Positions 11,895 to 63,530 of a stretch of 64,000 bases of DNA are shown piece after piece (position 1 is the stretch's first letter; the number at the start of each line of letters is the position of its first letter). This DNA comes from a virus (taxonomy: Duplodnaviria; Caudoviricetes), in IMG/VR virus record IMGVR_UViG_3300032038_000035, positions 1 through 64,000 of that record; one strand, 5' to 3'. Below the pieces are notes generated by a model. The model made no database searches. It was not told where the DNA came from and was given only the letters and a program-made list of their open reading frames with translations. The position numbers were made by a program, and so were the translations under genes.

Positions 11895-14800
11895 TTATAG
11901 ATGATTATAGTTTAAATTGGTTCTTGTACGTTTAGCTAATTTTGAATGTAACTGGGCTAATCTATCTTTCTGTCCGATACTGGATTGACCTTTCGTTGCT
12001 GACATGGTTGGTGCTTGTGCAGTATTAGGCTCGCCATGACCGATGCTATTTGATTTAGCATTAGATGGACCAGCTTGTGTTACTTCTTTAGGATTAACAG
12101 CAGAATCTATAAGCTCTATGAGTTTATCAATTCTAGATGTTACAGGAGAAGAATCCATTACAACGTGCATAGGATTATCTGCATCGCCCATATATACGTC
12201 ATTCGTATATATGTTATCATTGTCACGCATATTGTATCCTGCATCGCCGTTACCAATAGATGTTGGTATTAGATTCATATTAGAAGGTATAGAATTAATG
12301 ATATGAGCGGGTAAAGGATAGTAAACTCCATTCCATGGATTTTTACCATTACCTTCACTTGTAATCATACTATACATTCCGTTTATTCTGTTTCTCCAGC
12401 CTTTTCCATATTTACCATAATTAGAGAAGCCTGATATTGTATTAAACATTCCTTGTCTAACCTGATCTAACTCATTGCTAGCACCGGGACTTGTAACTGC
12501 AGAATAGAATGAAGGAACTGTTGCAGGAGCAACTCCAGCGAACTCAGCACCAAGTATAATAGATCTCGGGTCTTTCATGCCTCTCTTATTATACTGAGCT
12601 GCAGCTCTACTTATGTAATCCCATGCATATTCGTTCATCATTGCATCTTGTGCAGTAATAAGTGCAGGTTTCATATCAGGATACTGTGCAATATATGCTT
12701 TAATATCACTAGGATTTAATGAATGGTTGCCAATACCTGCTGCTATTGTATTCATTATGTTTCTAGTAGTTTCTGATAAATTAGGACTCTTAGCTGCAGT
12801 AGTAAATACAGTTTTAGCATTTGCATTATAGAAACCACCGCGTCCTATAGTTACACCAGACTCACCAGATAACCAAATAGGATTAAAGTAAATTTTATCT
12901 ATATCTGCAGGATTCTTAACATCGCCACCAGTCTCAGCTTTGGTCATAAGATCCATGAGATAATGTAATGTATTGGCTTCATTCCCTGCTGAAGGTATAC
13001 CATTACCAGCACTTGTCTTTGCCCAGCTAGGTAATAATGAGTACTCATCTGTAGGCTGGCCAGATGATATTTGCATACCTTTAATTTTATTATACATTTC
13101 GCTCGCTATATTATCTATAACAGCGCCAGTACCACCACTTGAATACTTGGATGCATATTGATACATCTTTTCATCAGGATACTGTGAGATTGCTTTCTGT
13201 GCAACCAACCATGTATAAATATTAGCAATAGTTTGTGTTACATATTTCTTATAATTAACAGATGCCGCAATATCTATCAGTAACTGATTGTATCTGGAAT
13301 CGGTAGTTAATGCTGAATAATTACCAGGATTAATTGTATATTTGCTAAGACCATTTTTATTGAATTCTGAATTAACTTCTGTATTACTTGAATAAGCAGA
13401 ATATGCAGAATCGATTGAAGATTTAACAAACGCCGCATCTATAATAAGCTGAGGATTGGTTATTGCTGCAGATGTATTATCGGTATTTGATGAATATCCA
13501 CCAGTACCGCCACCGCTTATACCAGAACCAGCGTCGGAATACGAACCAGTAGATCTAGATGAAGAATACAATAAACTTTTATCGCCAGATATTATCGATC
13601 CGATAAGATTGAATCCGAAATCGGTAAGATCGGATACCAAGTTAGCTATCCATTCTGAAACAGATTTAGCACCCTTTGATCCACCGGCATTTATATTTTG
13701 TGTCATTCCGCTAGCGAATATATTTCCAGAATCATAATTTACAGCCATTGGTGTATACGCAGTGCCGGTTGTAGTACCACCAGATGCATAAGTAGAATTA
13801 CTATTTGAACTCATTCCTTCGCTATATGTTTTAGCTAATTCAGGATGCGCTGATGCCCATGCCGAATATGTATCATATTTGTTACCGTCTGGGAATGTCT
13901 TTAAGAATGCTTCGCTTGCAGCGTCATTTGAAGCTGCAGCAGTTTTCATAGCTTTAAACATGTCCTCGGGCTTCTGCTTTACAAAATTACGTGTAGCTGG
14001 TTTAACTGCGCTTTTACCAAATATAACAACTCTGCGTATATCTGGATATGATGCAGTTGAAACTGCATTCCTAAACGTTTCCATCGGAACCGTATATATC
14101 TGATTACTCTTACCGTTGTATTCTGCACCAGTATTTGGGTTATCAACTACAACAAATTCTTCGCCAGCACTATTCTTATACAATCCAGCCAGTAAAACTC
14201 CATGCTGACTATTACTTTTTGCTTCATCTGGATTTGCAGTTCTACTAATAATTGGCTTCATTTTAGCACTTGTGCCATTATTTGAGCTAAATACGATAGG
14301 ATTACCTGCACTAAGATTAGCGTATAATAGTCTAAAGAAATCTTCCATTGATCCATTATATTTAACGCCATCCGCGCCTAAGAAATCATAATTAGATTCA
14401 CGCCATGGCACTTCCATGCCAAATATTTCAACTAATCGCTTATATGCATTATCATAAATAACCTGATGTGCGGAATTATTTACTTCAGGATGTTGTCTGA
14501 GTAATGTTGTTGGTGAAAATGATTTAGCAATATCAGAGAATTTTGTACTTCCACTGAGTATAGAATTCAGATATGCATTTACAAATGAATTATATACACA
14601 TCCTTCTGGTAATGCTCCAGTATAACCAAATGCACCGCCATTTCTGTTAAATGTTACATTACCATCTATGAGCTCATCGTCCCATGTTGAATATGGAGAA
14701 TTCGCATCGCCAACATGACGTCCATAACCAATAGCAGGTCCTCTTCCTATAGACCAAGCATGTGTCATGCCTTTAGTGAGTCTATTCATAGGAATATGTC

Positions 14801-17800
14801 TAGCGCCTCTCTTTAAAGGATCGTCCACTATAGCATTTCCTCTAGAATCTACACCACGTACTGACATGATATGACCAGCTCTTGTATAAGGGCCATTCTT
14901 TCCAGCTATGACAACGTTATTGCCGTGTCTAACGGAATTACCAATTGCATTGCCGCTCTTAGATATAGCTCTAGAAGCTAACCCGAGTTTACGTGCGCCA
15001 TTAGTAAATAATCCAGCAGATGTTCCGCCTTGTGCATTATAGCCATTAGACTGTGAGAATCTCGCCATTTGACCAGGGTTTACTTTTCTACCAGTAAGGT
15101 TAGAGTAAACATTAGCCATTGCGGTAGGACCGCATCCACCAGATCCAATTGTAGAACCACGTCCACTCTTAAAGCTACCATATGCTTGTCTAGCCCATCT
15201 AGGATCATTTTGAGTGTACCCATATCCAACATTACCGTATGCATTCATATTAACTTCATCATCGCTAGATAATTCATCATATGATTTAGCAGGTACTGGA
15301 TTGAGTACTTTATCATCTGTATTAAATACTGAATCTACGAAATTTAAAGCATCTCCGCGAATTCCAGTTGCGCCGTAATGCCCATATTTCATTAATGCGT
15401 CGTATGCTTTAACAAGTGTATTATTTCTTTTAACTAAAATGCTTAAGCCTTGTTTTACACGTGATGCTTTACCTTGTGAAAAACGCTCAGCGTCTTCTTT
15501 AGATGCGTATTCTTTTATATACCATGATTTTGTATCACTAGAGTATCCAAGTTTAACATTTGTAAGGTTTTGTGCAACTTTCGTAAATGCTTCCCTATCA
15601 TATACATTAGCACCTAGGCTATATTTTTCGATATACGCATATTCATCACTGGTAAGATAATTCTTTACACCGGTCTTAATTGTTTCACTACTAGTTCTTT
15701 CTAAATCCCGTTCAATAGCATTACCAAAAGGTAAACTTGTAACATCATCTAAATTCTTGGCAGAAGCATATGCAGCACCAAATTTCGTGACGTTTGCATA
15801 GTATTCTGAAAGTTGCGCAATAAACATTGGCTGATTATTGACGATATCATTAAGATATTTGGATTTATTGTCGCTTGAAATTCCGGATGCATCAACGTCT
15901 TTACTAATTTGTGTTTTTATTTGTGCGAAATCTTTAGAATTCTGAATAACGCTATTATCCGTTTGTGTAGCTTCAAGTTGTTTTCCGGTCGGTGTGTTTT
16001 CGAATATAGCTCCACCAACATGTACCCATGCTTCATGTATACCTCTACCAATAGCATGAATCGTGGTTTCGCCATCTTGTGCACCAGAAACGGTTCTAAT
16101 TACATTTGTAATCACATCACCGATGCCGTTTATAAGTCCGCCTTTACCATCTTCGCCAAATATCAATGGCTTTATGGTTGTAGTGAGTGTATCAAAAATC
16201 GGTTGAAGCAATGGTGCAAGCTTATCTATGATTTTAAGTACTGCGGGACCAAATAACACAATTCCGCCCAGTAAAGCAAGCGCTCTAGCTGCCAGTTTTC
16301 CAGTATCTATAGTACCATCAGGCTTTAACGGAATTAATCCAGAGCCCATTACGGCACCAGATATTTTCTGTCCAACTCCGGCAAAGCTTTCACCGATCTT
16401 ATCTAAGAAACTCTTCTTTTCTTCATCGGATCCAGTCTTATCTCCGGTGAATACATTTAATAATCCGCCGAGTTTCTCTTTCATTGAACTAAAGATTCCT
16501 TTAATTCCGCCTTCTTTTCCGTCTTCATCACCACCAAATAAATTAAATAATTTATTCGGCTTTTTAACGTCTCTACCTGAAAGAACTCTTAACGAAGCAC
16601 TAATATCATTAAGCGCATTAGAATCAAGACCACCTGTACCTATATTACGTCTGAAACTGTTAGCAGATTCAGGATCTAATACGATTTCACCTTTATGTAA
16701 TTTATAAAGACCATCTACGTCTATATTAGTTGCACCAGATGCTTTTGCAGGAATGAGTTGGAATGCATTCGTAATAAGTTCGCCGCCGGCTGGAATATTG
16801 CTGCTAACTTCTGGTGCACCTATCTGTGTAAACAGATCAGAGTAATCCACAGCACCGGGTTTCATTACATCCTGTACATCTTCATACGCATCGCTTACTT
16901 TATCAATTAAACCCTTGGTTTCTTTTTCGGGATTAGCCAATGATTCTTTTAATTTATCCTTAAGCTCATCTGAAGTATGCTCTGCAGTAGAATAGTTTTC
17001 ACCATCAAATGCATTCGCGGCCATATCTTCATTCTGTTTATGATAAAGATCGCCGCTAGCAGGTTTCTTTTCAAAGAATGCTTTCTTAAGGCCTTCGTAT
17101 ATATCTTTTATGGTTTGACCCATAACAGGTACTACATTAAGCAATGTCTCTCTGAAATTCTGCTCTTGTATAATGCTTTGGGTATCGCCATTACGTAAGA
17201 ATGCAACCATTTCTTGTGCAGTCTTGCCATTGAGAGCTTGCTCATTTTTCTCAAAGCCACTTTGCATTATCATTGCACGAAGTTCCTCGGGATAATCCAT
17301 AGCAGCATCAAGAGAGCCAAATCTCTTTATAACAGCATTTTTTAATTTCTTAAGTTCTTTATCTGCTTCAGCTTGGATTTTATTCATCTTACCAGTATCA
17401 GTAATACCCATTGATGCAAACATCTCTGGTGTAAGCCGTGATGATAATGTAGATTTAAAATCCAATGACGATTTAGCTAAATTAAAGTCATCGATTGAGA
17501 GATTATTTAATTTCTTAAGTGCACTTTTACCACGGCCATGCTTTATCGCAAAATCAGTCAGTCCGTTATTGCGCTTAAATCTATACCATTTACGATCGCC
17601 AGCTGTTGCAGTAAGTTCTTTAAGACGCTCTTTTTCTTCAGGCTTTAGATCCTTTTTATTTTTCAGTTTTTTGTATTCAGCGTCTTCGTTAAAAACTCTC
17701 TGCGCCTCTTCATCATCTACAGCAGATCTGTGACCCATCGATACGCTATCTTGTATGTCATTTATAAAATCACGTTCATCTGGAGTTAATTCAGATGGAT

Positions 17801-20800
17801 CTTTTTTCATAAGTTCGAAATAGCGCTGCTGTTCTTCGGTAGTATAACCAAGATCAGAAAGCATTCCGCCTCTATCAATGTGTGAGCCATGCATCATTCT
17901 ACGGAAATAGAATTTGCTGTCATCTATACCAAGACGTTCTTTCACAGCATGTACACGGTTTCCAATGAATTCGCCTATAGGCTTCGTTATGTTCTTAACA
18001 CGTCCACCAATCGCTTTAAGACCAGTAGAGAATATGCCAAGCATACCAGTACCAAGTATCTGTTTGAATATCGCATTAGCTGTTCCAGCAGCAAGCACTG
18101 ATCCAGCTAATATTGGGTGACCAGTTATTGCTAAAGGTGTAGCAAGAATAGCACCCATTAATCCACGTAAAATACTTTGACCATATTCACCTGTAAGTGC
18201 TTTACCGATACTTGAAATACCTTCGCTCATTTTATCAAATACGGTCTTACCTTTTTCTTTAACTTTATCGGCTGCAGTTGCAGCAGATGCGCCAAAGCGT
18301 TTCAATGGATTTACTACATAATCATCTATCATTCCGCTTCGTCCAAGCAGATGCGGAAGTTTACCCTGAGCTTTATAATAATGCTCATTTATGTATCCAA
18401 GTCTATCCCAACGATTAGCAATATTAGAAGGAAGATCACTAAGATATCCGCCTTTACCAAATATGTGACGTGTTCTATTTAATTTCTTATACGTTTCATT
18501 CTCTTCAGCAAGTCTATTTTGCAATGACGTCCATCCGTTAACAACGCCGCTCTTTATATCAGTAAACTTATTTTTTACGTCATTCTTTATTTTCGGAAAC
18601 ATCTTTGTTATGTCATGATCAGGATTTATACCAATGAGGCTATCGTTGAAGATCAGTTCTTTGTATATTTCCTTAAGCTGCTTTGATCTAGCTTCGCGTC
18701 TTTCTTTTTTCTTATCAGCTCTATATTCTTTGCCGCCAATTATACTAGCAAATACATTAAATGGTACAGAAGCAGCTTTAAACATTAATTTCGATCCAAT
18801 TGTAACTGCATCTATTGCTATATCAGTAGCGCCTTCTGCAACTCTTCCAACAGTATTTTTCAAACTATTAAGGAATCTTGTTACAATTGTACCATCCTTA
18901 CCGGTAATAACTTGCTCTAAGAATTTAGCTATACCATTACCAACAGAATCTTCATTTGAATTAGTAATCCTCTTTAAGAAGCTTTTAAATCCGAGTTTCA
19001 GATTATTGGTAACGTCAGAAAATGCAGATTTGAAATTCGTCTTTATATCTTCGCCAGCTTCAATTAGTCTATTGGTAAATCCACCAAATACACCGCCGGA
19101 TACATATTTGCGTCCATTAGAATCGGTTTCAACTTTGCCAAATATATACTCTCTTGTCTCTTTATTTCCAAGAGTGAAGCCGCCCATTATACCAATTGCA
19201 GAGCCAAGTACACCGGATAATGTTAATCCAATAAGACCGCCTTTAACTGCACCGGGAATGCCCTGAACCAAGCTATCGACAGTTTTTACATATGACCATG
19301 TCTGATCATTTGACCATCCCTGTGACTCTGCATATGCAAATGCATTCTCTTTAGCTTTGGTTCTTAATTGATCCATTATGTTTTTGGTTTCAGTTGCATT
19401 TTCGCCAGTTGCATGGTAACTCTTAAGACCAGCTCCTTCAATTATATTACCGGCTTCGTCTCTGGTATATCCTGTATATTTTTTGCCATCTATATACATG
19501 AAACGTTTATATCTGATATCGTCCACAATTTGATTATATGCATCAGATAATAAACCACCATGACGTAAATCACCTTCACCTTTATCACCAAGTAATAAAT
19601 TCTTTGCTTTACCGGTTTTCTCAAAGCCTCTTTCCCTATTTTCGCGTTCTGTAGTACCAAGAGCCGTTTGAGTCATAATGCCTAAGTTTATAGACATTTC
19701 AGTTAATTTCTTAACGAGAATAGATGCAGGATCATCGTTCTCATCTATATCAATAAAGCATAATGACTCATCACTAGGCTTAAGAGCCATTGATTTAATT
19801 GTCTCGGGGCTATATCTATCAACGACACGATTTACCGCTTTAACGACTTCCATTTCATGTCCTTTAAAGCGCTCATCAGAATCGCCAATGGCTTTAAGGA
19901 GTTTCTGTTGCCATTCTTCTGACATGCTATTGTAACCGCCATTATTAAGCATAGTTACGATGTCATCACGAACTTCTTGTGATAATGACTTATCGAGGAT
20001 CATTTCACCTTCATGGACTCTAGCTATCTGATCTGCATTAATTCGTGTCGCACCAGTAGCGAAGAAACCAATAGTATTCGGCTGTTTATATTGAGTTGGC
20101 GCATATAATTTGTCTTCATCATCAACCCAGCCTAACGCTGATTGTATACGATGAAGAATGCCCTCATTTGTGCTCTGTTCTTGCTCCTCTTTGATTTCTT
20201 TTGGAGTCTTATATCTAAATTGTCTAAAGTCGGTGTCATCAACTTGATCGTATCCATTCTTGATATTTTCATTCCAGATCTCATTAAACTTGGGATCATC
20301 TTCTAAAACACCTTCGCCGAATTTATCAACTTTAATGCGCTTTCCCCAATTATCTTTAGATTTGGAATATATGTAATACTCTATCGGCTCGCCATCATCG
20401 TTATAACGAATTTGATATTTCATGCCACTGCGATAGTCATCTGCACGGTCACGAATTTCGCTGAAAAACATAGATGGAGAAAACTCTTTAAATTTATCTA
20501 TAACGGCTCTTATACCGGAATCCCTAAATTCTTGTGCAAGATCCGATGAATATTCAAGCATTGCATCAACTGCTGCACTAACTCTATAATTGGCAAAATT
20601 TTTGCTTGCTACATGTTTTGATTCAGCCAATGCCATTTTATTATTATATGAAGACTGCATTCCTTTGAAGCGTCTATCGGCGTCTTCTTTAAGTGCTCTA
20701 TATGCTGGGTCGTCTTCATCTTCTTTAACTTGGCCACTTCGTATGGCATCAGTTAATGCGGCATCAGCAAATGCTCTAAACATATCAGTTGTATTTCTTA

Positions 20801-22988
20801 AACTTGAATTCCATTCATCATATTCAGTGCCAGCCGCTTCTGCACGTTCCTTGTGTCGTGTAGCATCTCTGATCAAATATGTTTGATCCGGGCCTATACC
20901 GAGAGCTTTTAATGCGGCTCTATCTCTAGATAAAGCTTGGTCGTAATTTGAAATCTCAGCTTTACGCTGTTCCGATACATCTACGACTAAAGAATATAAT
21001 GCATTCCTTTGATACGTCGTTAATGAATCAATTTGATATTTCTCTAACAGCTCATCAACTTGCGTTAATAATTTTTGTGCATCAATTTCTTCACGACTAC
21101 CATGCCATATACCCTGAACTAGTTTTTGGTATTCTTTATGGAACTCATTAAATTTCTCGACAGCTTTATTATACGCTTCTTTACGAGCTTTCGATGCTTT
21201 GTCATCTTTGTTTTCATTTTCCCAATCACTAAAACTGGAATCCATTACCGCAGCTTCATTCTTATCACCAATGATATACGAAGATACCTTATTCGAGAAC
21301 GCTTGCAAGCCAGTACCATATGCACGCTTTTCGGCTGTTTCAACTCTCTCAAGAATATCTTTCCTACTAGAAAGAGCTCCAGTTGATTCATCAAAAATCA
21401 AATCATTTGCTTCTGCGTATGCGTCTTCTTGTGATTTTACATTTGACCGTAGTTGTCTATTTCGTCTTCTAGATGTCAAATAATTTCTGTCAGCTAAGCG
21501 TTTTTGATTTTCAATATATGCAAGCGGCTCGTTGAGTTCATCACGTTCCCATTTAGAACCAGTACGCGCATAGTGCTTAAGCATATTATAATGGAAATCG
21601 AGCAGATGCCTATCGAGTTTTATATCATTGGCACCCATTTTATCAATCATTCCAATTAATGAGTCTATGCTTGAACGAATTCCAAATAAATGCTTATTTG
21701 CATCAGACAAATATTGAGGAATTACAGTTTGAAGTACTTCAGAATCTGAAGTCATCCACGAAGCTTCTTTATTCTCAAAAGTTTTTAGAGGTTTATATTC
21801 ATCTTCGTCTGTAAATAGTCTCATAAAAAATGAGCCTACCTTCGAGTCGTCCTTCCATAAACCGCCATGCGATTTATCTCTAGTAAGTTTCCTCTTAAAT
21901 GATTTGAACATTGTTTTTATGTTATTATCTATGCCCTTTAATCCAGAAAACCCGGGAAATAAATTCTCGAATATAATTTCAGCCGGATTAAATGTTTCAA
22001 CAAGCATAGATAAATCTCCCGTATACATTTCTTTTAAGAATTTAGGGAGATTTTCATCGCCGCCAACTGCAGCAGTTGCACCGAGCTTAATTAATGCAGG
22101 AAGTAAGCCCTGACCGCCAGCGAATTCAGTATCTGCCGATACGATAGCCTTTTTAAACAGGTTACCTAATCTAATTTTAGTACCGTCAAAGATTTTACTA
22201 TCGGCTATCTTTTTAAGACGCTCATTTTCGCGATCTTCATCGCTTTCATCTTCATCTGCATATCGTTTAGCTATCATATCCATGAATTGCTCAACTTTAT
22301 TAAAATGCACTGCAGTATTTTTAATAAAGTCATTCATGGTAGTATTATTATACTCTATCAGACTTGCCAAGTTTTCATTAATGCCTGAAATATTGTCATT
22401 TACAGTATTGAGCATTTGCATACTCTGTGCCATATTTGACATTTCAGTAGCGATAAGTCTATCGCCTAAAATATTATTGCTCTTGGCATTCATAAGAGCT
22501 AATTTATTGGTGGATATTTCAATGGCGCCAACGGTTGCCATTGTTGACTCGTATACACCTTGTGCATAATCCTCTGCAGTAAATGCTTCGGCTTCAGGCA
22601 TTTCGCCATTGTCTTCATCGTCAAAATCAAAATCGAAGTCAAAATCAAATTCTGATTGAGTATTTTTCTTTATGTAGTCAGTTAATCCCTGACGAGTACG
22701 ATCTAATGAAAGATTACCATGTGATAAGTCACTAAGGAAATTCTTCGAAGTATTGTATACTTTATTAGTAAACGTACGAAGTATACCGGATGAATTTCTA
22801 CTAGTCTTATCAGGTCTATTTTCATTTATGTAAGATCTAATATCGAATGCCGTATCGCTAGCATCTTGTAATAATTCAGATGTAAACGGCATATAACTAG
22901 CTATAGTACTTTTAGTTGCAGAAACAAATGATTTTGCAACACCACCTGCAAATTTTGCAGGATTGAAATTAATAGTTGACTCAGTCAT
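11895..22988 (-). CDS. Tape-measure / tail-associated lysin, 3697 aa, with two C39-like peptidase domains and a C-terminal lysozyme-like domain
   Basis: Long helical body; two TMP-type motifs (ATGATRINADQIARVHEGEMIL, ASGATNIDVDGLYKLHKGEIVL); YTQNDPRW...GCGPTAMA...GHIM...VDDP; second GCVYNS...HGVLL...VDNPN; AETGG...GVTIG...YGKGWRNRI. Confidence 0.8.
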   Translation of the reverse strand: MTESTINFNPAKFAGGVAKSFVSATKSTIASYMPFTSELLQDASDTAFDIRSYINENRPDKTSRNSSGILRTFTNKVYNTSKNFLSDLSHGNLSLDRTRQGLTDYIKKNTQSEFDFDFDFDFDDEDNGEMPEAEAFTAEDYAQGVYESTMATVGAIEISTNKLALMNAKSNNILGDRLIATEMSNMAQSMQMLNTVNDNISGINENLASLIEYNNTTMNDFIKNTAVHFNKVEQFMDMIAKRYADEDESDEDRENERLKKIADSKIFDGTKIRLGNLFKKAIVSADTEFAGGQGLLPALIKLGATAAVGGDENLPKFLKEMYTGDLSMLVETFNPAEIIFENLFPGFSGLKGIDNNIKTMFKSFKRKLTRDKSHGGLWKDDSKVGSFFMRLFTDEDEYKPLKTFENKEASWMTSDSEVLQTVIPQYLSDANKHLFGIRSSIDSLIGMIDKMGANDIKLDRHLLDFHYNMLKHYARTGSKWERDELNEPLAYIENQKRLADRNYLTSRRRNRQLRSNVKSQEDAYAEANDLIFDESTGALSSRKDILERVETAEKRAYGTGLQAFSNKVSSYIIGDKNEAAVMDSSFSDWENENKDDKASKARKEAYNKAVEKFNEFHKEYQKLVQGIWHGSREEIDAQKLLTQVDELLEKYQIDSLTTYQRNALYSLVVDVSEQRKAEISNYDQALSRDRAALKALGIGPDQTYLIRDATRHKERAEAAGTEYDEWNSSLRNTTDMFRAFADAALTDAIRSGQVKEDEDDPAYRALKEDADRRFKGMQSSYNNKMALAESKHVASKNFANYRVSAAVDAMLEYSSDLAQEFRDSGIRAVIDKFKEFSPSMFFSEIRDRADDYRSGMKYQIRYNDDGEPIEYYIYSKSKDNWGKRIKVDKFGEGVLEDDPKFNEIWNENIKNGYDQVDDTDFRQFRYKTPKEIKEEQEQSTNEGILHRIQSALGWVDDEDKLYAPTQYKQPNTIGFFATGATRINADQIARVHEGEMILDKSLSQEVRDDIVTMLNNGGYNSMSEEWQQKLLKAIGDSDERFKGHEMEVVKAVNRVVDRYSPETIKSMALKPSDESLCFIDIDENDDPASILVKKLTEMSINLGIMTQTALGTTERENRERGFEKTGKAKNLLLGDKGEGDLRHGGLLSDAYNQIVDDIRYKRFMYIDGKKYTGYTRDEAGNIIEGAGLKSYHATGENATETKNIMDQLRTKAKENAFAYAESQGWSNDQTWSYVKTVDSLVQGIPGAVKGGLIGLTLSGVLGSAIGIMGGFTLGNKETREYIFGKVETDSNGRKYVSGGVFGGFTNRLIEAGEDIKTNFKSAFSDVTNNLKLGFKSFLKRITNSNEDSVGNGIAKFLEQVITGKDGTIVTRFLNSLKNTVGRVAEGATDIAIDAVTIGSKLMFKAASVPFNVFASIIGGKEYRADKKKERREARSKQLKEIYKELIFNDSLIGINPDHDITKMFPKIKNDVKNKFTDIKSGVVNGWTSLQNRLAEENETYKKLNRTRHIFGKGGYLSDLPSNIANRWDRLGYINEHYYKAQGKLPHLLGRSGMIDDYVVNPLKRFGASAATAADKVKEKGKTVFDKMSEGISSIGKALTGEYGQSILRGLMGAILATPLAITGHPILAGSVLAAGTANAIFKQILGTGMLGIFSTGLKAIGGRVKNITKPIGEFIGNRVHAVKERLGIDDSKFYFRRMMHGSHIDRGGMLSDLGYTTEEQQRYFELMKKDPSELTPDERDFINDIQDSVSMGHRSAVDDEEAQRVFNEDAEYKKLKNKKDLKPEEKERLKELTATAGDRKWYRFKRNNGLTDFAIKHGRGKSALKKLNNLSIDDFNLAKSSLDFKSTLSSRLTPEMFASMGITDTGKMNKIQAEADKELKKLKNAVIKRFGSLDAAMDYPEELRAMIMQSGFEKNEQALNGKTAQEMVAFLRNGDTQSIIQEQNFRETLLNVVPVMGQTIKDIYEGLKKAFFEKKPASGDLYHKQNEDMAANAFDGENYSTAEHTSDELKDKLKESLANPEKETKGLIDKVSDAYEDVQDVMKPGAVDYSDLFTQIGAPEVSSNIPAGGELITNAFQLIPAKASGATNIDVDGLYKLHKGEIVLDPESANSFRRNIGTGGLDSNALNDISASLRVLSGRDVKKPNKLFNLFGGDEDGKEGGIKGIFSSMKEKLGGLLNVFTGDKTGSDEEKKSFLDKIGESFAGVGQKISGAVMGSGLIPLKPDGTIDTGKLAARALALLGGIVLFGPAVLKIIDKLAPLLQPIFDTLTTTIKPLIFGEDGKGGLINGIGDVITNVIRTVSGAQDGETTIHAIGRGIHEAWVHVGGAIFENTPTGKQLEATQTDNSVIQNSKDFAQIKTQISKDVDASGISSDNKSKYLNDIVNNQPMFIAQLSEYYANVTKFGAAYASAKNLDDVTSLPFGNAIERDLERTSSETIKTGVKNYLTSDEYAYIEKYSLGANVYDREAFTKVAQNLTNVKLGYSSDTKSWYIKEYASKEDAERFSQGKASRVKQGLSILVKRNNTLVKAYDALMKYGHYGATGIRGDALNFVDSVFNTDDKVLNPVPAKSYDELSSDDEVNMNAYGNVGYGYTQNDPRWARQAYGSFKSGRGSTIGSGGCGPTAMANVYSNLTGRKVNPGQMARFSQSNGYNAQGGTSAGLFTNGARKLGLASRAISKSGNAIGNSVRHGNNVVIAGKNGPYTRAGHIMSVRGVDSRGNAIVDDPLKRGARHIPMNRLTKGMTHAWSIGRGPAIGYGRHVGDANSPYSTWDDELIDGNVTFNRNGGAFGYTGALPEGCVYNSFVNAYLNSILSGSTKFSDIAKSFSPTTLLRQHPEVNNSAHQVIYDNAYKRLVEIFGMEVPWRESNYDFLGADGVKYNGSMEDFFRLLYANLSAGNPIVFSSNNGTSAKMKPIISRTANPDEAKSNSQHGVLLAGLYKNSAGEEFVVVDNPNTGAEYNGKSNQIYTVPMETFRNAVSTASYPDIRRVVIFGKSAVKPATRNFVKQKPEDMFKAMKTAAASNDAASEAFLKTFPDGNKYDTYSAWASAHPELAKTYSEGMSSNSNSTYASGGTTTGTAYTPMAVNYDSGNIFASGMTQNINAGGSKGAKSVSEWIANLVSDLTDFGFNLIGSIISGDKSLLYSSSRSTGSYSDAGSGISGGGTGGYSSNTDNTSAAITNPQLIIDAAFVKSSIDSAYSAYSSNTEVNSEFNKNGLSKYTINPGNYSALTTDSRYNQLLIDIAASVNYKKYVTQTIANIYTWLVAQKAISQYPDEKMYQYASKYSSGGTGAVIDNIASEMYNKIKGMQISSGQPTDEYSLLPSWAKTSAGNGIPSAGNEANTLHYLMDLMTKAETGGDVKNPADIDKIYFNPIWLSGESGVTIGRGGFYNANAKTVFTTAAKSPNLSETTRNIMNTIAAGIGNHSLNPSDIKAYIAQYPDMKPALITAQDAMMNEYAWDYISRAAAQYNKRGMKDPRSIILGAEFAGVAPATVPSFYSAVTSPGASNELDQVRQGMFNTISGFSNYGKYGKGWRNRINGMYSMITSEGNGKNPWNGVYYPLPAHIINSIPSNMNLIPTSIGNGDAGYNMRDNDNIYTNDVYMGDADNPMHVVMDSSPVTSRIDKLIELIDSAVNPKEVTQAGPSNAKSNSIGHGEPNTAQAPTMSATKGQSSIGQKDRLAQLHSKLAKRTRTNLNYNHL

Positions 22989-61439: not shown

Positions 61440-61720
61440 AAAATAAGTGGGAGACCCTTAGGCCTCTCATGTGTTGGTCTTATTGTCTTTTATGTATCTC
61501 TTAATTCTCTCTATTTTCTGGTCGTTTTTGGTCTCGGATGTGTTTGTGGGGCGGACCGCCCCCCTGAAAATTCGCTCCGCTCATTCTTTTTTTCTCCGAC
61601 CTTCGGTCTCTAATAGGAAGCCCTACCTGACAATACGCTTCAGTTTCCCTAAACTCCGGATTTAGCCACTACCCCTTAAGGTCTGTTATCCTCACGTCTA
61701 GTCCCCCTGGCAACATCATT
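61440..61720. other. Strand-asymmetric non-coding element: candidate replication origin or second late ncRNA
   Basis: Pyrimidine-rich plus strand, five GGTC sites, GGGGCGG-A-CCGCCCC palindrome (61548-61562), promoter at 61719-61731. Confidence 0.4.
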
Positions 61721-61731
61721 ACGTTATTGTT
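61719..61731 (-). promoter_or_regulatory. Late-type promoter AACA-N6-TAA with no downstream CDS
   Basis: aaaaatatAACAataacgTAA; the upstream context is shared with 62249-62261. Confidence 0.65.
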
Positions 61732-61744
61732 ATATTTTTTTTTA

Positions 61745-62250
61745 AAAAAAAATAATTTATATTTTTATCTTTTTGGATAGAGATAAATCTATAAATTGGA
61801 TATAGCAATATGTAACAATGCAACGTCTTGTTGAGTAATATCTAGAGAATTTAAAGTGAGCTCATGTAATGAAAGACATACAAATGAACGTATTAGATAC
61901 GGGTGAGCTTAGATCGAAATCAATAAGCTCTTATGCTACAATCATTACGGTGAACGAACTTTCAAGCTAAGCCTGACTCATAATCATGAGATTAACCTTT
62001 CTTCAGTGAACGTCTAGAAACCCCCTCCCTGGTGGTTAGCGTAGTGAGTTCAGGGGTAATCGAGTCTTTCGACAAGCCTACTTTTCATTCATAGTTTTAC
62101 ACCCTATTCGCATAATGTACTTTCGTACTTCTGTTTTTCACACTATCATATGTACACCTTTTGAGCATACAAAGGACATGACTGTTCCATTCCCGCGGTC
62201 ATATCCAGACAATCACCTTGCCATGTACTCGCGTACCTAGATTCCGGTTT
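61745..62250 (-). ncRNA. Large ornate structured ncRNA (~500 nt; core 61840-62242)
   Basis: Own late promoter, terminal hairpin plus T tract, ten nested helices, and GCGA/GAAA/GAAA/UUCG tetraloops and G-U pairs all on the minus strand; no ORF. Confidence 0.75.
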
Positions 62251-62261
62251 AACTATATGTT
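62249..62261 (-). promoter_or_regulatory. Late-type promoter AACA-N6-TAA driving the ncRNA
   Basis: aaaaatatAACAtatagtTAA. Confidence 0.7.
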
Positions 62262-62273
62262 ATATTTTTATTT

Positions 62274-62318: not shown

Positions 62319-62696
62319 CTATATAGCATAGCCTACTTTATCTATATTGTAAGTATAGACACCTTTACCTGAATAGGTAACTGATATAGCATACATATCA
62401 CCAGATACAAATTCAGGTTTTAGTTTCTTAGTAGTATCTCCTGTTATGTAATTACACCAAGGAAGTATTCCTCTATTATATAAAGCTTCATCTATAGCTT
62501 CATATAATAGAGTACATTCTCTACCAGTGCCTTGGTATACTATAGCAGTACTATGTGTGTTATAGCATTTATACTCTATGCTCTCATATAGATCTGGCCA
62601 TATATGCTTCTGTTGTTCATACCATGTTTCATATAATGCTTTGGATTGACCTATAGCATTATCTACTAAAACAGAAATTTCATTAGGCTCTACCAT
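62319..62696 (-). CDS. Hypothetical protein located between two ncRNAs
   Basis: AAGGAGTG RBS, TATATTATA motif upstream, own terminator. Confidence 0.7.
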   Translation of the reverse strand: MVEPNEISVLVDNAIGQSKALYETWYEQQKHIWPDLYESIEYKCYNTHSTAIVYQGTGRECTLLYEAIDEALYNRGILPWCNYITGDTTKKLKPEFVSGDMYAISVTYSGKGVYTYNIDKVGYAI

Positions 62697-62759
62697 AATG
62701 AATCACTCCTTTCTTATATAGATATAATATACATTCCAAAAAAATATCATATTAGAGCA

Positions 62760-62960
62760 AAAAATAAATCATCAATAGATGATTTATTTTATTCATGGCT
62801 ATTGCCATAGTATTCCTCCTTCCGGAGCTGTAGACGTCAGTCACTTCGCCTCCACTATTGCAGAGACCACGCTCTCACGAGCAGGCTGACATCCATATAG
62901 GCATTACATACATCACGTGGTGTATGTAACGTTTTCCCTATATGTCTACGTTTATTATTA
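62760..62960 (-). ncRNA. Candidate ~200-nt multi-branch ncRNA or structured leader
   Basis: Bipartite promoter, closing stem GTAGAC/GTCTAC, nested stems, GUGA and GGAA tetraloops, terminator at 62759-62790. Confidence 0.65.
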
Positions 62961-62964
62961 CTTA

Positions 62965-62997
62965 TAGAATATATAAAGCAACATACGTAATTTACGG
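62965..62997 (-). promoter_or_regulatory. Bipartite promoter CCGT-N20-TATATTCTA
   Basis: Third exact-spacing copy. Confidence 0.7.
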
Positions 62998-63008
62998 GGG
63001 GTACGTAC

Positions 63009-63042
63009 AAAAAATATAGCCACCCGAAGGTGGCTATATTTT
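63009..63042 (-). terminator. Terminator with C(UUCG)G loop
   Basis: aaaatatagccacc-ttcg-ggtggctatatttttt. Confidence 0.85.
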
Positions 63043-63050
63043 AATCGGAA

Positions 63051-63530
63051 TCAGTTATTGGGTTCAACCGAAGTGGGCATGTTAGGTAACGGGTATTCAA
63101 ATTCTAGAGTCTGTGGATTGATCTGCGGATTTGGACGACTATTTTCGAGATACCGTATAAGTTTGGACACTATATGCTTTCTTTTAATTGTTGATATCGA
63201 GCTAGTATCCACTCTCAAATATATATTGGATTCCAACTTATAAGCAGCATCCAATATTAATTCCGGTGGCACATGCCCAGATTCTGCAAGGCTAAGCAGA
63301 ATCTGTTTTGCTGCAGCTGCTTCATCAACATATTCCATCACTTCACGATCTTCAAAGTATCTGAAGAAGTTGTTTATCTTATCTACTATAAGATAAACAA
63401 CCGCGTCGTGTATCTCTTCTTGTCTTGCTGCTTCTTCTATAGATTTTTTCTTGTCAAGCGCATCTTGATATATATCCATGTAATCAATTTCGAAATCTTC
63501 GTTGATATTATAATACTTATTTTTATTCAT
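63051..63530 (-). CDS. Hypothetical protein
   Basis: GGAGGT RBS. Confidence 0.7.
   Translation of the reverse strand: MNKNKYYNINEDFEIDYMDIYQDALDKKKSIEEAARQEEIHDAVVYLIVDKINNFFRYFEDREVMEYVDEAAAAKQILLSLAESGHVPPELILDAAYKLESNIYLRVDTSSISTIKRKHIVSKLIRYLENSRPNPQINPQTLEFEYPLPNMPTSVEPNN

Follow-up and report, generated by a model that had tools for sequence, protein, structure and literature searches.

Giant phages are known to produce small RNAs that derive from 5' untranslated regions by premature termination, such as sRNA005 of 201phi2-1 and the sRNA located upstream of gp182 in phiKZ (PMC11512511). Here we describe a putative RNA of about 200 nt on the minus strand of a 64,000-nt stretch of viral DNA (referred to as the window throughout) and compare it with these and other known systems. 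Like the giant-phage sRNAs, it belongs to a jumbo phage with multisubunit polymerases, it forms a short unit running from transcription start to terminator upstream of a co-oriented gene, and its predicted secondary structure is conserved among relatives. The giant-phage sRNAs differ in that they are found in Pseudomonas phages, upstream of a tail gene, and the two were compared by description only. In contrast to them, the RNA of the window is preceded by an early-type promoter and combines a 120-nt multi-branch domain with a mini-ORF whose ribosome site is conserved.

Several other systems share parts of this layout. In leaders of the E. coli pyrBI type (position effects are described in PMC4824070), a leader ORF with a Shine-Dalgarno sequence (SD) and AUG abuts or crosses an intrinsic terminator before the structural genes. 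As in such attenuators, the peptide sequence of the window RNA seems irrelevant and a ribosome footprint would block folding of the terminator hairpin. On the other hand, the ORF of the window RNA has only 4 to 23 codons, its terminator lies about 20 nt past the AUG with no known pause element, and the RNA combines a large upstream fold with a phage polymerase and a possible second promoter past the terminator. Riboswitches similarly have a covarying multi-helix domain that immediately precedes a ribosome site and intrinsic terminator, with co-oriented genes next, but the window RNA belongs to no Rfam class, shows no conserved, mutually exclusive antiterminator or anti-SD pairing, and is followed by genes that differ by lineage. 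Type I toxin mRNAs such as fst and txpA are likewise structured, measure about 200 nt, enclose the SD in a hairpin and encode a short hydrophobic peptide whose ORF stops at the terminator, whereas the peptide of the window RNA is not conserved and in some copies consists of just 4 residues. Finally, phi29 pRNA, HK022 put and B. subtilis EAR are phage or Firmicute multi-helix-junction RNAs that lie close to an early promoter and act as RNA. Those RNAs carry no ribosome site, and the RNA described here has no Rfam match.

The source phage and the predicted transcription unit

The window corresponds to the initial 64 kb of an IMG/VR virus record that is 102.7 kb long and has a GC content of 34% and a CheckV completeness of 41%; a 236-kb contig carries an identical copy of one of the window's proteins. 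The best relatives of the terminase are those of the Bacillus jumbo phages vB_BpuM-BpSp (33% identity) and Goe21 (29%), both of the genus Takahashivirus, a relationship that we take to point to the AR9/PBS1 group. Since the record encodes a beta'-like RNA polymerase segment (PF00623, 46.5 bits, 81340-81768) as well as a weak beta-like RNA polymerase match within a 1447-aa ORF, the phage has multisubunit RNA polymerases of its own. By these sequence relationships the source is an AR9/PBS1-like jumbo phage with multisubunit RNA polymerase genes. Phages of the PBS1 type have multisubunit polymerases but no chimallin (bioRxiv 10.1101/2023.02.24.529968), so that no phage nucleus would be expected between transcription and translation. 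A single ORF of 3697 codons occupies positions 11895-22988 on the minus strand of the window, and very long ORFs of 1274, 1447 and 1627 codons gave no Pfam match.

An early-class promoter is predicted on the minus strand at 62959-62973. Its core, TATATTCT (62973-62966), is followed by six nucleotides, a purine at 62959 that represents the inferred start, and then AATAATAAAC. The motif is near-invariant in the homologues and resembles the early consensus recognized by the virion polymerase of AR9, AAATATATATTAT-N6-G(+1) (PMC5312081). A search with TATATT[AC]T..ATAA.A.A detected eight copies in the 102.7-kb record, all on the minus strand (90082, 75753, 69903, 65209, 62973, 62731, 29146 and 24207), and the seven others precede genes with an SD and ATG. 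A purine stands 7 nt past the core in 8/8 copies. At several of these sites a short GC-rich 5' hairpin comes next, before the SD. The sequence-only reading of this locus had called the RNA early, and the promoter motif agrees with that label as far as sequence can tell; it is reasonable to infer that the RNA is transcribed early from 62973-62959.

At its other end, the unit is delimited by a predicted intrinsic terminator at 62759-62788 (minus strand), with an 11-bp AU-rich stem (62788-62778/62773-62763), a UAUU loop and a U6 tract (62764-62759). The RNA thereby appears to have both its own promoter and its own terminator. Upstream, a 159-aa gene ends in a strong terminator at 63009-63042 (minus strand; GC-rich stem, UUCG loop, -19.8 kcal/mol), which would insulate the RNA unit from upstream transcription. 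Downstream lies a 125-aa gene (62319-62696, minus strand), separated from the RNA by a spacer (62697-62758, minus strand; 59 nt from GCTC to ATG) that contains TATATTAT at 62731-62724, a purine at 62717 and the SD AAAGGAG. This spacer is the best-conserved stretch of the locus, with a mean pairwise identity of 97.6%, the RNA reaching 90.2% and the coding sequence 89.2%. Its TATATTAT-N6-A is one of the eight promoter-like copies of the record and sits between the RNA terminator and the 125-aa gene, so that read-through may be dispensable for this gene. At the equivalent spot of the distant homologue L032, described below, the sequence is TATATCAT, with a single core mismatch at a position where all 12 good copies agree; the two genes that follow have no motif in front of them. 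An intact TATATT[AC]T is therefore missing before each of the downstream genes of L032 (155, 228 and 119 aa), the nearest one upstream being that of the RNA itself.

Fold and covariation of the RNA

All helices listed in the sequence-only reading were recovered, on the minus strand and between 62949 and 62755. The 120-nt multi-branch core domain (62830-62949) consists of P1 or an alternative extension of P3, of P2a/P2b, and of P3 bearing P3a and P3b. P1 pairs GTAGAC (62949-62944) with GTCTAC (62835-62830). P2a (ATATAGG, 62943-62937, with CCTATAT, 62901-62895) and P2b (62930-62921 with 62912-62903) form one long hairpin with an A-rich bulge. P3 joins GTCAG (62890-62886) to CTGAC (62840-62836) and carries P3a (GCTC-gtga-GAGC, 62882-62871) and P3b ((T)CTCTGC-aata-GTGGAG(G), 62866-62849). 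Past the domain, P4 (CUCC-GGAA-GGAG, 62827-62816 within an element at 62815-62827; -4.5 kcal/mol) contains the SD AGGAGG at 62820-62815, and P5 (AUGGC-AAUA-GCCAU, 62795-62808) contains the AUG at 62808-62806. Overall, the minimum free energy of a 221-nt stretch is -76.1 kcal/mol, compared with -48.0 +/- 4.2 kcal/mol in 200 dinucleotide shuffles, none of which folds as well (z = -6.68; 0/200).

The sole alternative pairing met in the RNA concerns P1. GGAU (62893-62890) can pair with (C)GUCU and lengthen P3, a fold favored by both RNAfold and RNAalifold (-75.2 kcal/mol versus -71.7 kcal/mol with P1 enforced). Because this alternative is preferred, and because P1 never covaries and contains a U.U mismatch in L032, the closing helix GUAGAC/GUCUAC is plausible but unproven. 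Two further structural candidates were rejected. A kissing loop via the palindromic CACGUG loop of P2b was discarded since the changes in L005, L022 and L024 fit a plain hairpin extension, and a hammerhead-like junction was discarded because the junction strands do not match. A plus-strand terminator called by pattern scan at 62904-62929 corresponds to the complement of P2b plus a weak T run, with no plus-strand gene nearby.

Nine homologues were retrieved from metagenome contigs, giving ten copies with the window, all from one narrow clade. Eight of them (L004, L005 and L020-L025) are on contigs of relatives of the 125-aa protein and make up, together with the window, the nine close copies. 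The distant tenth, L032, is on a contig reached via P0018, a remote relative of the 125-aa protein found by profile search. A covariance model built from the nine close copies (R1) located the core in L032 at 1507-1639 with 97 bits (E = 8e-22), and the core is thus retained there despite different flanking genes. The length of the RNA is 195-197 nt across the nine copies.

Compensatory changes were assessed in two alignments. In a plain MAFFT alignment of the nine copies, 97.9% of pair cells are standard, five pairs show changes on both sides, and the covariation score is attained by 0/500 shuffles. In the alignment of all ten copies fitted to the model, standard pairs account for 99.5% of pair cells and double compensatory changes occur in 10 pairs (1 in P2a, 7 in P2b and 2 in P3a); 0/500 shuffles attain any of five measures and slid controls fall to 28-48% paired. 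In P3a the helix is swapped, GCUC-GUGA-GAGC being replaced by UGCC-UACG-GGCA in L024 and by a GCCU/AGGC stem in L032. P3 and P3b show one-sided changes only, and no compensatory double changes are present in P1, P3b, P4 or the terminator. The mean pairwise identity of the RNA (90.2%) equals that of the neighboring coding sequence (89.2%), and its changes are located in loops, in linkers and in stems where they are compensated. The linkers and the A-rich bulge contain indels of 1-2 nt that break reading frames, which excludes a coding reading of the RNA, and no ORF is conserved throughout.

These data support the view that the RNA is real, conserved, structured and non-coding. The structured RNA proposed from the single sequence is therefore borne out by homologue covariation in P2a, P2b and P3a, while the possibility raised at the time that it is the decayed 5' end of a protein gene is ruled out by the compensatory changes and the frame-breaking indels. 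As read from the alignments, the structure is under selection, with covariation mainly in P2 and P3a and not in the parts nearest the ribosome site.

Searches for known families and further relatives were largely negative. A cmscan run of the whole window against Rfam 15, whose families include riboswitches, ribozymes, T-box, 6S, tmRNA, pRNA, EAR and known sRNAs, gave 0 matches at gathering thresholds; at a permissive E-value the best hits scored 12-21 bits against cut-offs of 49-100 bits and covered terminators only. As regards a ribozyme or a known riboswitch, the earlier suggestion of a riboswitch/ribozyme-like leader gains no support from these empty scans, and on reading the sequences we saw neither a conserved antiterminator nor an anti-SD pairing to the 120-nt domain. 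ARAGORN detected neither tRNA nor tmRNA. The locus had no blastn match among 50,697 phage records, and neither the two flanking proteins nor a profile built for the 125-aa family retrieved a related locus from IMG/VR. Pattern scans, exact as well as degenerate, revealed no further copy in IMG/VR or GTDB genomes, and the 13 matches of a JGI metagenome pattern scan were all due to chance (e.g. CRISPR repeats). Model R1 likewise had no hit in the Bacillus phages BpSp and Goe21 or in the single related contig of IMG/VR, and within the record of the phage itself it detected no copy besides the known one. Judged by these searches, the RNA family is new and absent from Rfam; its general kind, a phage leader or sRNA, is known, and its layout is unusual.

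Ribosome site, mini-ORF and possible modes of action

In the window, the mini-ORF (62752-62808, minus strand) runs for 18 codons from the ATG at 62808 to a TAA at 62754-62752 and encodes MAIAMNKINHLLMIYFLL. In the nine close copies it has 18, 18, 4, 7, 7, 11, 7, 4 and 7 codons, and in L032 it has 23 (read by eye). Frames and sequences differ among close relatives, two copies encode merely MAMP and MVQP, and the common residues K-I-N ... I-Y-F are the A tract and U tract of the terminator translated in frame. The 18-aa peptide noted in the sequence-only reading is, on this comparison of ten copies, not a conserved product. A small-protein gene, for example one for a hydrophobic peptide of the type I toxin kind whose translation is limited by a long structured 5' UTR, would explain the strong SD and AUG, their position within hairpins in nine copies and the hydrophobic character of the window's peptide. 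It is nonetheless largely refuted by the homologues and appears very improbable, given products of 4 to 23 residues in differing frames and shared residues that merely translate terminator tracts. Since its length and frame vary, the peptide itself cannot be what counts, whereas being translated might be.

The ribosome site itself is conserved. AGGAGGA followed by AUG is present in 10/10 copies, with an SD-to-AUG spacing of 6 to 9 nt in the nine close ones. The P4 stem is invariant in the nine close copies (loop GGAA, GAAA or AAAA), and the P5 stem is kept in them with variable loops and one C-to-U change resulting in U.G. In L032 the 5' arm of P4 and all of P5 are missing, and the 3' part outside these motifs is not alignable; AGGAGGA-UAUU-AUG, with the AUG 4 nt after AGGAGGA, is kept there without either sequestering hairpin and before different genes. 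Since AGGAGGA and AUG survive in L032 without P4/P5, the site seems to be kept as a ribosome site and not as helix material, and it looks selected as such. The burial of SD and AUG described in the sequence-only reading therefore holds for the nine close copies, the window among them, and is not general; with the SD open in L032, sequestration cannot be the conserved control point and is, on this comparison, a clade feature. Relative to the start of the terminator stem, the stop codon of the mini-ORF lies at -6 to +34 nt in the nine close copies and beyond the terminator in L032. A ribosome at the stop codon would thus stand at most 6 nt from the hairpin, or within it, in all nine. A stop beyond the terminator T tract, as had been noted, is present in the window but in only 3/10 copies.

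We consider the best reading, with a probability of roughly 0.4, to be an early leader or attenuator cassette in which a ribosome-loaded mini-ORF lies beside a terminator. Transcription by the virion-type RNA polymerase would start near 62959, and most transcripts would probably end at 62759-62764 to give the RNA of about 200 nt. A ribosome positioned on AGGAGG/AUG would, once it has translated at least 4 codons, shield the 5' arm of the terminator, and the polymerase could then read on into one or more genes downstream. How easily ribosomes load would be set by the folded domain just 5' of their site, through its own stability or by binding a protein or small molecule, with help from P4/P5 in the window's clade. 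This reading is favored by the stable and covarying fold (z -6.7; 10 double-change pairs against 0/500 shuffles) and by the universal AGGAGGA and AUG (10/10 copies) in front of a mini-ORF that is indifferent to its peptide. The terminator is likewise suited to such control. At -12.5 kcal/mol it is weaker than those of two neighboring genes (about -20 kcal/mol), and none of the others among the 40 terminators found by script in the record is spanned by a short SD-ATG ORF (at most 60 codons). Its stem is invariant and its loop variable in the nine close copies, and in L032 this position is taken by a stem of different sequence. The stop codon falls near or inside the hairpin in the nine close copies and the ORF passes through the terminator in L032, where no intact promoter motif precedes the three downstream genes. 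In a phage of the PBS1 type lacking chimallin, no nucleus is expected to part transcription from translation. In E. coli, full folding of a hairpin needs 10-15 nt of free RNA, and a terminator located a few bp past a stop codon is almost fully repressed by ribosomes (PMC4824070).

Some observations sit less well with an attenuator. In E. coli, a terminator that lies no more than 100 bp into an ORF is efficient unless the polymerase pauses and thereby couples to the ribosome, and a terminator about 20 nt past the AUG should accordingly work efficiently without pausing (PMC4824070). A promoter-like motif follows the terminator in the window's clade, with a one-mismatch version in L032, no antiterminator helix was seen on reading the sequences, and the SD is open in L032. 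The ten copies moreover come from one narrow clade, with covariation mainly in P2 and P3a. To our knowledge, no pause signal has been described for phage multisubunit polymerases. A stand-alone early sRNA, a terminated RNA of about 200 nt acting in trans, for example as a protein scaffold or decoy or as a base-pairing regulator, is in our view nearly as likely as the leader. Its promoter belongs to a class that otherwise serves separate genes, it has a terminator of its own whose position 20 nt past the AUG should make it efficient (PMC4824070), and a strong upstream terminator insulates it. The promoter-like motif past the terminator and its near-copy in L032 fit an independent unit, as does the absence of a fixed downstream gene, which is the 125-aa gene in nine copies and a 155-aa gene of a paralogous family in L032. 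The domain is compact and larger than leader-peptide attenuators require, and giant Pseudomonas phages make short transcription units of such a type (PMC11512511). A free sRNA leaves unexplained why the ribosome site and AUG are kept in 10/10 copies even without hairpins; on this reading they would be either a second ribosome-binding feature or a stabilizer of the RNA. Nor was conserved complementarity to phage RNAs detected. The one 14-nt perfect complement, on the plus strand at 80052, pairs with a stretch of the RNA that differs from copy to copy, chance alone predicting about 0.16 matches of this kind, and full-length duplex energies with the two neighboring non-coding blocks and the 125-aa mRNA leader were no better than those of shuffled controls. 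The leader and sRNA readings, both of which were among the options of the sequence-only reading, are not mutually exclusive.

Two other explanations carry less weight. A cis-acting RNA that modifies the phage polymerase for processive antitermination, similar to HK022 put or B. subtilis EAR, would account for a conserved compact fold placed directly past an early-type promoter and before a terminator and co-oriented operon. We consider it improbable, because the conserved SD and AUG would have no role in it and no Rfam family was matched; EAR is among the Rfam families. We know of no such polymerase-modifying RNA for phage multisubunit polymerases. The lack of a match to any known family might also be expected of a functionless sequence, be it the remnant of a decayed gene or a chance intergenic fold, but this is scarcely credible in view of 10 double-change pairs, a z of -6.7, a near-constant length in nine copies and a core that scores 97 bits in a relative with other flanking genes.

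A narrower version of the leader reading is that the 120-nt domain senses a metabolite or a protein, of phage or host, and gates ribosome loading on the peptide-indifferent mini-ORF at a weak terminator. We regard this version as unlikely. If true, it would represent the first attenuator or riboswitch-like switch for a non-canonical multisubunit polymerase of a jumbo phage, and possibly one of several in this genome, since its layout recurs in a unit at 69548-69170. Transcription in jumbo phages of the AR9/phiKZ type relies on polymerases of their own, and control at the RNA level is almost uncharted there. An attenuator would show coupling of translation and termination for a non-canonical polymerase, and a free RNA would be a candidate early host-takeover or anti-defense RNA. 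With an uncultured phage and no more than ten known copies, all closely related, the RNA is of limited practical importance at present.

Neighboring genes and other candidate RNA elements

The 125-aa protein has 17 near-identical homologues in metagenome assemblies and 3 remote ones found by profile search; it gave no PHROG match, no Atlas lead and, with an AlphaFold2 model (pLDDT 78), no PDB fold match. Its gene adjoins the RNA in nine copies, and in L032 two genes intervene, the order being promoter, RNA, terminator, 155-aa gene, 228-aa gene and 119-aa homologue. Linkage of the RNA to this gene is not strict. The 159-aa protein encoded upstream of the RNA in the window (63051-63530, minus strand) shares 28% identity over 74 residues with the 155-aa protein of L032 (E = 0.001), in an alignment centered on K-I-N-x-F-F and V-P-x-x-L-I-x-x-A-A. 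By eye, the same motifs are found in the 135-aa and 228-aa proteins of L032 (L032 loci at 610-1017, 1751-2218 and 2297-2983). The 159-, 155-, 135- and 228-aa proteins look like a small paralogous family whose copy number and order vary by lineage around the RNA; the family weakly matches phrog_36231, which has no known function. On L024, a few genes upstream of the RNA and on the opposite strand (1-819), an anaerobic ribonucleotide reductase gene (NRDD) has LAGLIDADG and Hom_end matches, which suggests an intein or a homing endonuclease insertion.

Two non-coding blocks were observed further downstream on the minus strand. A block of about 390 nt (61860-62262) after the terminator of the 125-aa gene is conserved in 7 relatives. 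In front of it stands TTTTTTTAAA(T)AAAAATATAACA-N6-TA, in agreement with AACA-N6-TA/G, the late consensus of AR9. In the L020-L022 lineage, its GNRA-capped hairpins GUAC-GCGA-GUAC and GUAC-GAAA-GUAC are replaced by far longer hairpins, and a reduced version is present in L032. It has no Rfam match and its minimum free energy is not above that of shuffles (z 0.3); from these comparisons it looks like a large structured RNA with variable peripheral helices. The second block (61440-61735) lies behind the only other copy of the late-type promoter context and is far more divergent from lineage to lineage. AGCGAAUUUUCAGGGGGG..GGUCCGC is nevertheless retained, in L032 as well, and the block closes with a hairpin and U tract; Rfam gave no match, and the z of the fold is 0.3-0.7. 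CCAGGG..UAGACGU, common to both blocks, was considered as a partner of ACGUCUA in the RNA and rejected because it is not conserved in the L020-L022 lineage.

Finally, a second early-type unit is located outside the window, at 69170-69565 on the minus strand of the same record (G000). The roughly 380 nt that come after TATATTCT at 69565 contain no long ORF and fold well (z -4.8 versus mononucleotide shuffles). The unit ends with AAAGGAG, an AUG and a 29-codon ORF that passes through a 13-bp hairpin, after which the next gene follows, a layout that matches that of the RNA in the window.
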